From Shigella phage ESh21: DNA of 64,000 bases. The notes under the pieces were generated by a model. It searched no databases. It was not told the origin of the DNA and was given only the letters and a program-made list of their open reading frames with translations. Shown in pieces: positions 44,686 through 44,821 of this stretch. The stretch's first letter is position 1. Every line of letters starts with the position of its first letter. The translations under genes were made by a program, and so were the position numbers. Where the stretch lies: sequence record ON528731; one strand, written 5' to 3'.

Positions 44686-44821
44686 AATTTACAGAAGACC
44701 GTTTACAGCAATTTAAACAATCTAATTCTCTATAAAAGAAAGGGAGAAGGTTCGATTCCTTCACACGTTACGGCGTGTTGGTGTAATGGTAGCACTTAAG
44801 ATGATATGGTCTGGTAATCCT
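44686..44821 (+). repeat. structured spacer element, copy 4, carrying a tRNA-like insertion
   Basis: same ends as copy 2 but interior replaced by a T-arm and D-arm-like segment. Confidence 0.55.
44741..44800 (+). pseudogene. tRNA-like fragment (T-arm + acceptor 3' strand followed by acceptor 5' strand + D-arm; permuted or remnant)
   Basis: GAAGG-TTCGATT-CCTTC then ACACG-loop-CGTGT then GG-TGT-AATGGTAG-CAC; no anticodon arm found. Confidence 0.4.

Follow-up and report, generated by a model that had tools for sequence, protein, structure and literature searches.

The window analysed here, a 64,000-nt stretch of DNA from Shigella phage ESh21 (sequence record ON528731), contains in its tRNA array a segment that we consider, with a probability of about 65%, to be the tRNA-like module of a Y-RNA-type small non-coding RNA, with YrlA-type architecture. 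The element is most likely part of a phage form of the Ro60/Y-RNA partnership that has not been described before, and not tRNA debris. A function for the enclosing RNA units, and their binding to the Ro60-like protein encoded on the same strand, are proposed by analogy with known systems.

A circularly permuted tRNA cloverleaf within a hairpin unit

The window belongs to an Ounavirinae phage (Felix-O1-like, Mooglevirus-type). ARAGORN identified 25 tRNA genes on the + strand, spanning 43879-48614, and the segment is located in a 424-nt gap between tRNA-Asp (end 44541) and tRNA-Lys (start 44965). The composite unit found in this gap, designated unit 4, consists of the following parts.

44696-44812, + strand: unit 4, composite, a Y-RNA-like hairpin carrying the permuted tRNA-like module
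44696-44702, + strand: 5' strand of the unit 4 closing stem, AGACCGT, pairing with 44806-44812
44706-44711, + strand: CAGCAA motif of unit 4, 3 nt after the 5' strand of the closing stem
44725-44741, + strand: anticodon-arm-like (or V-arm) hairpin ATTCT-CTATAAA-AGAAA, 5 bp with a 7-nt loop
44742-44745, + strand: variable loop GGGA, 4 nt, directly 3' of the anticodon-arm-like hairpin
44746-44762, + strand: T-arm GAAGG-TTCGATT-CCTTC, with G53, T54, T55, C56, A58 and C61 present
44763-44778, + strand: acceptor-like hairpin ACACGTT-AC-GGCGTGT, effectively 5 bp with a 6-nt loop and no CCA
44779-44780, + strand: TG linker, with U8 at 44779
44781-44795, + strand: D-arm GTGT-AATGGTA-GCAC, with A14, G18 and G19 present
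44806-44812, + strand: 3' strand of the unit 4 closing stem, ATGGTCT, followed by GGT

When both strands of the 64-kb window were searched with a strict scanner for a T-arm, a closed stem and a D-arm, this was the only site detected, and 50 shuffled windows yielded 0 sites, confirming the order of T-arm, acceptor 3' strand, loop, acceptor 5' strand and D-arm given in a preliminary description of the segment. The statement in that description that no anticodon arm is present is incorrect, as the hairpin at 44725-44741, with its 5-bp stem and 7-nt loop, lies directly upstream. The further claim that the 3' half precedes the 5' half, in the manner of a circular permutation, was examined with ARAGORN at default settings. 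No tRNA was called at the module site in native order. Placing the 5' half ahead of the anticodon-arm-like hairpin and appending CCA led to a tRNA call with anticodon ATA for the window version, and to a tRNA-Thr(GGT) call for the versions from Sf17 and wV8. Since a tRNA is called only after re-ordering, the whole cloverleaf is present, permuted between positions 26 and 27. In other words, no arm of the tRNA is missing, the circular permutation breaks the cloverleaf between the D-arm and the anticodon stem, and a loop caps the acceptor stem.

Comparison of positions 44690-44820 with Rfam gave only a sub-threshold tRNA match of 19 bits, at 44707-44770; the Rfam YrlA model had no match at unit 4 even at E<=10, and Rfam 15 does not capture the composite unit or the hairpin family. 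A tmRNA or permuted tmRNA was considered and rejected, as ARAGORN called no tmRNA and the Rfam tmRNA_permuted matches were elsewhere and sub-threshold. In the minimum free energy fold of unit 4, the closing stem forms and so do all four elements of the module (anticodon/V hairpin, T-arm, acceptor-like hairpin and D-arm); the folding energy is not unusual (z = -1.22) and is uninformative.

The preliminary description had placed the segment inside the fourth copy of a spacer repeat, and four repeated hairpin units are indeed present, the other three being short.

44049-44109, + strand: unit 1, short Y-RNA-like hairpin, stem AGACCAA/TTGGTCT, with CAGCAA; repeat families D11, D12 and D17
44210-44267, + strand: unit 2, short Y-RNA-like hairpin, stem AGACCGT/ACGGTCT, with CAGCAA
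44609-44675, + strand: unit 3, short Y-RNA-like hairpin, stem AGACCAA/TTGGTCT, with CAGCAA

Unit 2 resembles unit 4 without its T/acceptor/D block. The inner stem pairs are AA/TT in units 1 and 3 and GT/AC in unit 2, representing compensatory changes, and the 3' strand of the unit 4 closing stem reads ACGGTCT in most relatives. A covariance model trained on 39 short hairpins (R2) matched the three short units at 44046-44113 (41.9 bits), 44207-44271 (51.2 bits) and 44606-44679 (38.9 bits), all three being training sequences. Inside unit 4, A-rich, unpaired linkers of 22 and 10 nt separate the basal stem from the tRNA-like module. The four units are situated 0.3-1.1 kb 3' of the Ro60-like gene on the same strand, with unit 4 at 983 nt, and are kept at the same positions in phage Bas63.

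The CAGCAA motif is present in 4/4 window units and in Bas63, and is almost invariant in the 39-sequence alignment of short hairpin units. The family consensus is C-N-G-C-A-A, located 1-5 nt past the closing stem, and it is presumed to be a protein-binding site, the counterpart of GNCGAA in YrlA. In other phages the closing stems have different sequences, yet their strands remain complementary and they keep the same placement with respect to the motif. Shuffle tests of the closing stem gave p values of only 0.003-0.3 per element, and weight is therefore placed on the strand and position bias over many loci described below.

Conservation and covariation of the module

The spacer bearing the tRNA-like module shares 99% identity with Shigella phage ESh22, and 81-93% identity with 246 other Ounavirinae records. 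Comparison with these related phages demonstrated that unit 4, including the module, is conserved across Ounavirinae, with pairing of the acceptor-like stem maintained by compensatory changes in three lineages. The stem is ACACG/CGTGT in the window and Sf17 type, a 7-bp ACTCGGC-AGAT-GTCGAGT in Felixounavirus, and ACCCTTC-GCCAAACA-GAAGGGT in the Mordin group. In an unrelated group of uncultured phages, CAACATT-CTAGT-AATGTTG occupies the same place between a similar T-arm and D-arm.

Covariation was analysed in an alignment of 8 sequences (A4), of which three rows (L090, L112 and L116) came from a scanner demanding pairing; the other five were found without such a demand, and it is from these five that the covariation signal comes. 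In this alignment 97.6% of cells pair, and double changes occur in 12/16 pairs, including all 7 pairs of the acceptor-like stem, a result equalled in 0/500 shuffles. No comparable pairing was obtained when A4 was read in a slid register. The invariant columns are U8, G10, A14, G18-G19, G53, T54, T55, C56, A58 and C61, corresponding to the tRNA elbow.

Within Ounavirinae, variable columns number 0/17 in the T-arm and 1/15 in the D-arm, versus 13/24 and 13/15 in the flanking linkers, where indels of 1-4 nt are also found. Some of the T-arm invariance arises by construction, since the T-arm served as the search pattern by which part of this low-diversity set was retrieved; copies obtained independently of that pattern, with BLAST or through protein homology, have the identical T-arm, and none of the Ounavirinae copies examined departs from it. 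The anticodon-like hairpin is not conserved, with 12/17 columns varying within Ounavirinae. Its loop is found in five variants, one of 6 nt, and reads CTGGTAA, CCGGTAA or CGGTAA in relatives. The 3' acceptor strand is followed by GCCA or ACCA in the Mordin-type (GCCA) and L106 copies. These patterns indicate that the module is under selection as a structure.

The results bear on whether the element is a genuine permuted or split tRNA gene, in which a cut in the acceptor loop and CCA addition would yield a two-piece or re-ligated tRNA-Thr. The cloverleaf that is complete once un-permuted, the 7-bp acceptor stem of the Felixounavirus copies, and the GCCA or ACCA after the 3' strand in Mordin-type and L106 copies are all compatible with such a gene, and the YrlA of Mycobacterium smegmatis, which is cleaved and CCA-tailed, provides a precedent (PMC4201824). 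The anticodon loop, on the other hand, carries GGT in some copies, ATA in the window and only 6 nt in others, and the window copy lacks CCA and has 5 effective acceptor pairs. Acceptor stems of only 0-3 bp are found in many family members (L111, L090, L074 and L056). The leader-trailer helix is, by inspection, a plain 7-bp stem with long unpaired linkers, and no bulge-helix-bulge was found. Bacteria are not known to possess the archaeal/eukaryal splicing endonuclease, which also counts against this reading. Because the anticodon loop is unconserved and many members have no acceptor stem, a working permuted tRNA is very unlikely.

A second possibility is a non-functional remnant, in which two tandem tRNA-Thr genes were each reduced to a half, the first to its 3' part and the second to its 5' part, which persist through phage kinship only. 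The un-permuted sequence makes a good tRNA-Thr(GGU) in some relatives, the Mordin-type copy keeps GCCA after its 3' acceptor strand, the anticodon loop appears to be decaying through its five variants, a weak Rfam tRNA match covers 44707-44770, and the PhageMaP insertion data discussed below gave no phenotype (10.1101/2024.10.10.617714). A dead remnant would not be expected to keep acceptor complementarity through multiple two-sided changes in three lineages, nor to have near-invariant T- and D-arms between variable linkers, and the closed-acceptor module recurs with wholly different sequences beside DUF2828 genes in unrelated phages. This covariation and recurrence make a dead remnant unlikely.

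The preliminary description had left three readings side by side, namely a decayed tRNA, a recombination scar and a tRNA mimic. Compensatory changes in the acceptor, invariant elbow nucleotides and recurrence beside Ro60-like genes in unrelated phages support the tRNA mimic. The other two do not describe the present state of the element, and may apply to its distant origin from a tRNA-Thr(GGU)-like ancestor. The context that accounts for the element, namely the surrounding stem with CAGCAA and the upstream Ro60-like gene, had escaped that description.

A Ro60-like gene and its association with the hairpin family

Upstream of the tRNA array, the window encodes a 471-aa protein, followed by two promoter-like sites.

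42298-43713, + strand: Ro60-like protein gene, 471 aa, Pfam DUF2828 and DUF7788, with the vWA MIDAS motif DVSGSM
43732-43760, + strand: sigma-70-like promoter, consensus scan, 10/12 matches
43823-43852, + strand: sigma-70-like promoter, consensus scan, 11/12 matches

The gene ends 165 nt before the first tRNA, and its product matches PHROG 850, annotated as 'RNA-binding protein'. Residues D279, S281 and S283 of the vWA motif are invariant. An AlphaFold (AF2) model built on 28 homologs (pLDDT 89, pTM 0.88) was compared with the PDB using Foldseek, and the best 11 matches were all Ro60/TROVE+vWA structures, aligned over the full length (E 2e-8 to 5e-6, query-normalised TM 0.40-0.60, 499-567 aligned columns) from frog, human, Deinococcus (Rsr) and Thermus phage phiLo, with plain vWA domains following only at E > 1e-3. 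Pfam called DUF2828 and DUF7788, and not TROVE; phmmer gave no significant match to the sequences of solved structures, and a profile search of PDB sequences recovered TROVE chains at a non-significant E of about 1. As the sequence searches were not significant, it is the predicted structure that identifies the 471-aa DUF2828 product as having a Ro60 fold, modelled as a ring of HEAT repeats with a vWA domain. A literature search on DUF2828 found nothing relevant.

The protein is 79.4% identical to bas63_0130 (Bas63 gp130), with shared downstream gene order, and the two are orthologs. Bas63 gp130 has been shown experimentally to counter the ppl defence system, and the PhageMaP authors independently noted its resemblance to Ro60 and guessed that Y RNAs are hidden within the tRNA array, identifying none (10.1101/2024.10.10.617714). 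In the same study, gp130 alone rescued T7 on the ppl strain. In the PhageMaP supplementary data (10.1101/2024.10.10.617714), barcode insertions in g130 gave fitness values of -2.87, -3.35 and -3.65 on the ppl strain, and insertions in Bas63 'gene 137' gave +0.63, +0.55 and +0.73, where 'gene 137' is a spurious minus-strand CDS overlapping the element and the values are taken for 'gene 137' as a whole. Rescue of T7 by gp130 alone, together with the lack of phenotype for the 'gene 137' insertions, indicates that the tRNA-like RNA is dispensable or redundant for the ppl phenotype, the only one known. If it is redundant, the backup may be the three sibling units or host RNAs.

Both promoter-like sites follow the Ro60-like gene and precede the first tRNA. 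Further downstream, no + strand terminator was detected ahead of the next promoter, at 45215. Two near-consensus promoters and the lack of such a terminator make it likely that the hairpin units are co-transcribed with the tRNAs from Pro to Ile. The two promoters probably drive the operon that contains the tRNA-like element, a role put forward with reserve, as promoter-like sites are no more numerous in the window than in shuffled sequence. A protein-coding reading was rejected both for the + strand ORF at 44545-44799 (TTG start) and for the minus-strand CDSs annotated over the element in wV8, Bas63 and ESh22, because indels of 1, 2 and 4 nt occur among relatives inside these ORFs. Several GenBank records that place small 'hypothetical protein' genes on this RNA can be corrected accordingly.

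To examine the association between the hairpins and DUF2828 genes, 80 IMG/VR loci encoding DUF2828 homologs were collected, 75 of them non-Ounavirinae (37-49% identity). Three scans of the 75 loci were compared. The architecture scan specified a closing stem of >=6 bp, then 1-5 nt, C[ACT]GCA, 15-75 nt and a perfect T-arm, with no demand for an acceptor stem or D-arm. It returned 17 matches on the gene's strand (in 15 loci), 1 on the opposite strand and 0 in block-shuffled sequence. Most of the matches also contained a closed acceptor-like stem and a D-arm, and one had ACCA and an insert of roughly 55 nt in the acceptor loop. At least 17 units in the 75 loci carry a tRNA-like module, about 10 of which lie <210 nt from the DUF2828 gene and >1.4 kb from any tRNA.

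The short hairpin of ~60 nt is far commoner in DUF2828 loci than the tRNA-like form. A motif-plus-stem scan for short hairpins found 126 on the gene's strand and 32 on the other strand, with about 22 in shuffles. Model R2, with matches counted at E<0.01, gave 56 matches in 44/75 loci, all on the gene's strand, and 45/56 were <=400 nt from the DUF2828 gene. Among these 45 gene-adjacent units, 25 are in loci without a tRNA in the DNA examined (about 5 kb), 10 more are >1 kb from any tRNA, and only 3 lie within 300 nt of one. In control tRNA-array loci, R2 found no units in 6/7. The strand and position bias, the tRNA-free loci and the controls together link the hairpin family to the Ro60-like gene, and not to tRNAs as such. 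A core model of the T, acceptor and D parts (R1) was also constructed; its matches below about 25 bits are mostly ordinary tRNA-tRNA junctions, and tRNA masking and the architecture scan were therefore used instead.

The same composite RNA is also carried by an unrelated phage group, referred to as group 2 (L009, L012, L020, L022 and L041), in which R2 finds short units flanking the tRNA-like module, outside its training set. Neither a DUF2828 nor a TROVE gene was detected by tblastn and Pfam in the DNA examined, up to 13.5 kb around the composite RNA, with 6-14 kb covered of each contig; the contigs are 54-136 kb long, except that of L012 (13.6 kb).

The same data were used to weigh a further reading, in which the element is a tRNA-shaped processing signal in a polycistronic tRNA transcript, unconnected to the Ro60-like protein and serving RNase P, RNase Z or RNase E as a recognition site for freeing the neighbouring RNAs. 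The element does lie within a tRNA operon, with no promoter or terminator between it and the flanking tRNAs, and all loci with the tRNA-like version also have same-strand tRNAs. Units also occur in the tRNA arrays of the group-2 phages and of L027, where the DNA examined contains no DUF2828 gene, and RNase P cuts M. smegmatis YrlA (PMC4201824). Against this stand the gene-adjacent short units that have no tRNA within about 5 kb or lie more than 1 kb from one, the tRNA-like units that sit close to the DUF2828 gene and far from tRNAs, and the scarcity of units in the control arrays. The window acceptor-like stem, at effectively 5 bp, is also too short for RNase P by the account in PMC4201824. 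We regard a processing signal as rather unlikely, and prefer a Y-RNA-like partner of the Ro60-like protein.

Proposed mechanism and comparison with known systems

For a Y-RNA-like partner, we propose that the units would be transcribed with the first tRNA operon and then excised. The basal stem and CNGCAA motif would bind the Ro60-like protein, and the tRNA-shaped elbow formed by the T-loop and D-loop would recruit a tRNA-recognising partner, for which a modification enzyme, RNase P, an exoribonuclease or a host defence factor are candidates. Such recruitment would resemble the tethering of Ro60 to PNPase by bacterial Y RNAs. The biological role is likely RNA surveillance or counter-defence during infection; the Bas63 ortholog of the Ro60-like protein counters ppl.

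More tentatively, and as a possibility we would give well under even odds, DUF2828 proteins and CNGCAA hairpin RNAs may form a large, phage-specific and undescribed branch of the Ro60/Y-RNA systems. Here the ring protein would load several small hairpin RNAs, one of them with the tRNA mimic, and in some lineages, those with a 7-bp acceptor or with GCCA/ACCA in the loop, RNase P would cleave the mimic, which would then receive a CCA tail. The particle so formed might keep phage tRNAs intact or repair them, or might be a decoy that draws off host defences of the tRNA-directed or nuclease type, such as ppl.

Much work on Ro60/Y-RNA particles has been done in animals, and in a few bacteria. The present analysis places a divergent Ro60-fold protein with candidate Y-like RNAs in Felix-O1-type phages, which are widely used in typing and therapy, and also in many uncultured phages, and supplies candidate RNA partners for Bas63 gp130, which had previously only been guessed. 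The system is genetically tractable, as the anti-defence phenotype of the protein is measurable and the RNAs and tRNA mimic can be judged against it. No description of the CNGCAA hairpin family or of the Ounavirinae element was found in the searchable literature.

Dimeric tRNAs mimic the T...D order and are a source of YrlA false positives (PMC4201824). Junctions between tRNAs in the window share the succession of T-arm and D-arm, and score 13-21 bits with R1. In the junctions, the acceptor strands are non-complementary and split by the discriminator, CCA and a spacer, whereas in the window element they pair across a loop of 2-8 nt, with no intact tRNA on either side.

The permuted tRNA genes of Cyanidioschyzon merolae and some green algae likewise encode the 3' part first, and un-permuting restores a tRNA. 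Those genes give rise to functional tRNAs via a circular intermediate, with a splicing endonuclease acting at a bulge-helix-bulge motif. The window element differs in having no bulge-helix-bulge, an unconserved anticodon, a capped acceptor and a bacterial host.

Phage-encoded pairs of Ro60 and Y-like RNAs are known from mycobacteriophages, CcrColossus, Bacillus phage G and Thermus phage phiLo (PMC4201824, PMC12135203), and surveys of jumbo phages have noted TROVE proteins that have a tRNA-like partner. In phiLo, binding of Ro60 with Yrl1/Yrl2 and a complex with PNPase have been demonstrated experimentally (PMC12135203; PDB 9L5Y, 9KOP). The phiLo RNAs have a CGAA motif and none has been described with a tRNA-like module; the window pair is a predicted one. 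Both phages encode a Ro60-fold protein with small stem/bulge RNAs adjoining its gene, and phiLo Ro60 is one of the solved structures that the window protein matches best.

The closest parallel in architecture is YrlA (Rfam RF02553), known from Salmonella, Mycobacterium and some phages, in which a stem formed by the RNA ends, with a GNCGAA(N)G motif, encloses V, T, a closed acceptor-like stem and D in that order (PMC4201824). The gene for YrlA shares its strand with that for Ro60 and lies no more than about 4 kb away, commonly with a sibling RNA that lacks the tRNA domain; it is bound by Ro60 in vivo and modified by TruB and DusA, and in M. smegmatis it undergoes RNase P cleavage followed by CCA addition (PMC4201824). 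The Rfam YrlA model matched the tRNA-like module of one family member (L053) at 39.2 bits (E=3.9e-5), relative to a gathering score of 69 bits. Unit 4 differs from YrlA in that the motif GNCGAAN0-1G is absent and the equivalent place has CNGCAA, and in that the partner belongs to DUF2828/DUF7788 and not to Pfam TROVE. Further differences from YrlA are the location of the window units inside a phage tRNA operon, the predominance of the short hairpin (~60 nt) over other forms, and the long A-rich linkers between basal stem and module. The two share the order of V/anticodon-like hairpin, T-arm, closed acceptor-like stem and D-arm, and a basal stem in which the two RNA termini pair around the module (AGACCGT/ATGGTCT here, with predicted ends). 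They also share the conserved nucleotides of the tRNA elbow, the nearby Ro60-type gene on the same strand (here a structural homolog), and siblings without the tRNA module, comparable to YrlB.

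Promoters, an upstream gene and the tRNA array

The following features surround the Ro60-like gene and the composite unit (the Y-RNA-like hairpin carrying a permuted tRNA-like module).

41848-42219 (+), DUF5681 gene, the immediate upstream neighbour of the Ro60-like gene
43705-43738 and 43796-43829 (+), 34-nt promoter module present twice, in the interval from the Ro60-like gene to the first tRNA
43963-44034 (+), tRNA-Glu(TTC), Rfam 53.7 bits, annotated in relatives
44813-44964 (+), structured segment, immediately 3' of the composite unit and 5' of tRNA-Lys
45215-45243 (+), third, near-consensus promoter, assigned by consensus likeness
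45668-45752 (+), tRNA-Trp-like sequence containing tRNA-like parts

The two copies of the promoter module are 76% identical, and each ends in TTGACAA. For g129, the Bas63 counterpart of the DUF5681 gene, the published PhageMaP insertion-fitness study gives strongly negative values (-0.9 to -3.5) in every sheet examined, a pattern not shared by g130, the ortholog of the Ro60-like gene. Within the array, tRNA-Glu(TTC) was detected by Rfam and not called by ARAGORN, and the array therefore holds at least 26 tRNAs. The tRNA-Trp-like sequence, called by neither ARAGORN nor Rfam, has an ATGGGAC/GTCCCAT acceptor followed by GCCA, the T-arm GGGGTTCGATTCCTCC, and an oversized anticodon-type loop containing CCA; the sequence could be a tRNA that is aberrant or has decayed.

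A conserved structured segment next to the composite unit

The segment preceding tRNA-Lys is predicted to fold into a long stem that includes a three-way junction, and this fold is very stable (MFE -50.4 kcal/mol, z = -5.24). It is highly conserved among Moogleviruses and a few Felixounaviruses (88-100% identity), with compensatory changes at 5 pairs; most Felixounaviruses carry a different sequence at this position. An Rfam search of the segment gave no match.

Related RNAs and annotations in other phages

Comparison loci from other phages contained the following features, each in its own numbering.

L012 8424-8673 and L041 3428-3677, also L009, L020 and L022, composite RNA of an unrelated group, just upstream of tRNA-Gln
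L126 12749-13023, bas63_0137/0138; L005 820-1077, WV8_gp048; L001 1852-1998, ESh22 URY12725.1; small 'hypothetical protein' CDSs annotated in GenBank over the RNA element
L053 10720-10946 (+), group I intron, Rfam 71.5 bits, over threshold
L106 4572-4678 and L003 897-952 (Mordin group), tRNA-like variants with ACCA or GCCA after the 3' acceptor strand

The GenBank CDSs lie on either strand of the RNA element; indels among relatives break their frames, indicating that they are spurious. The intron lies on a DUF2828-bearing phage contig, where the Ro60-like gene is ~4 kb upstream of it.

The unrelated group comprises uncultured phages, most represented by contigs of 54-136 kb. In this group, a short CNGCAA-type hairpin is followed by the tRNA-like unit (acceptor stem CAACATT-CTAGT-AATGTTG) and a second short hairpin; no DUF2828/TROVE gene was found near this RNA in the 13.5 kb examined.

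In the L106 variant, a ~55-nt insert separates the post-acceptor ACCA from the 5' strand. The ACCA/GCCA of these variants resembles a true tRNA 3' end, a hint that RNase P/CCA processing occurs as it does in YrlA of M. smegmatis, a bacterial Y RNA with a tRNA-like domain.
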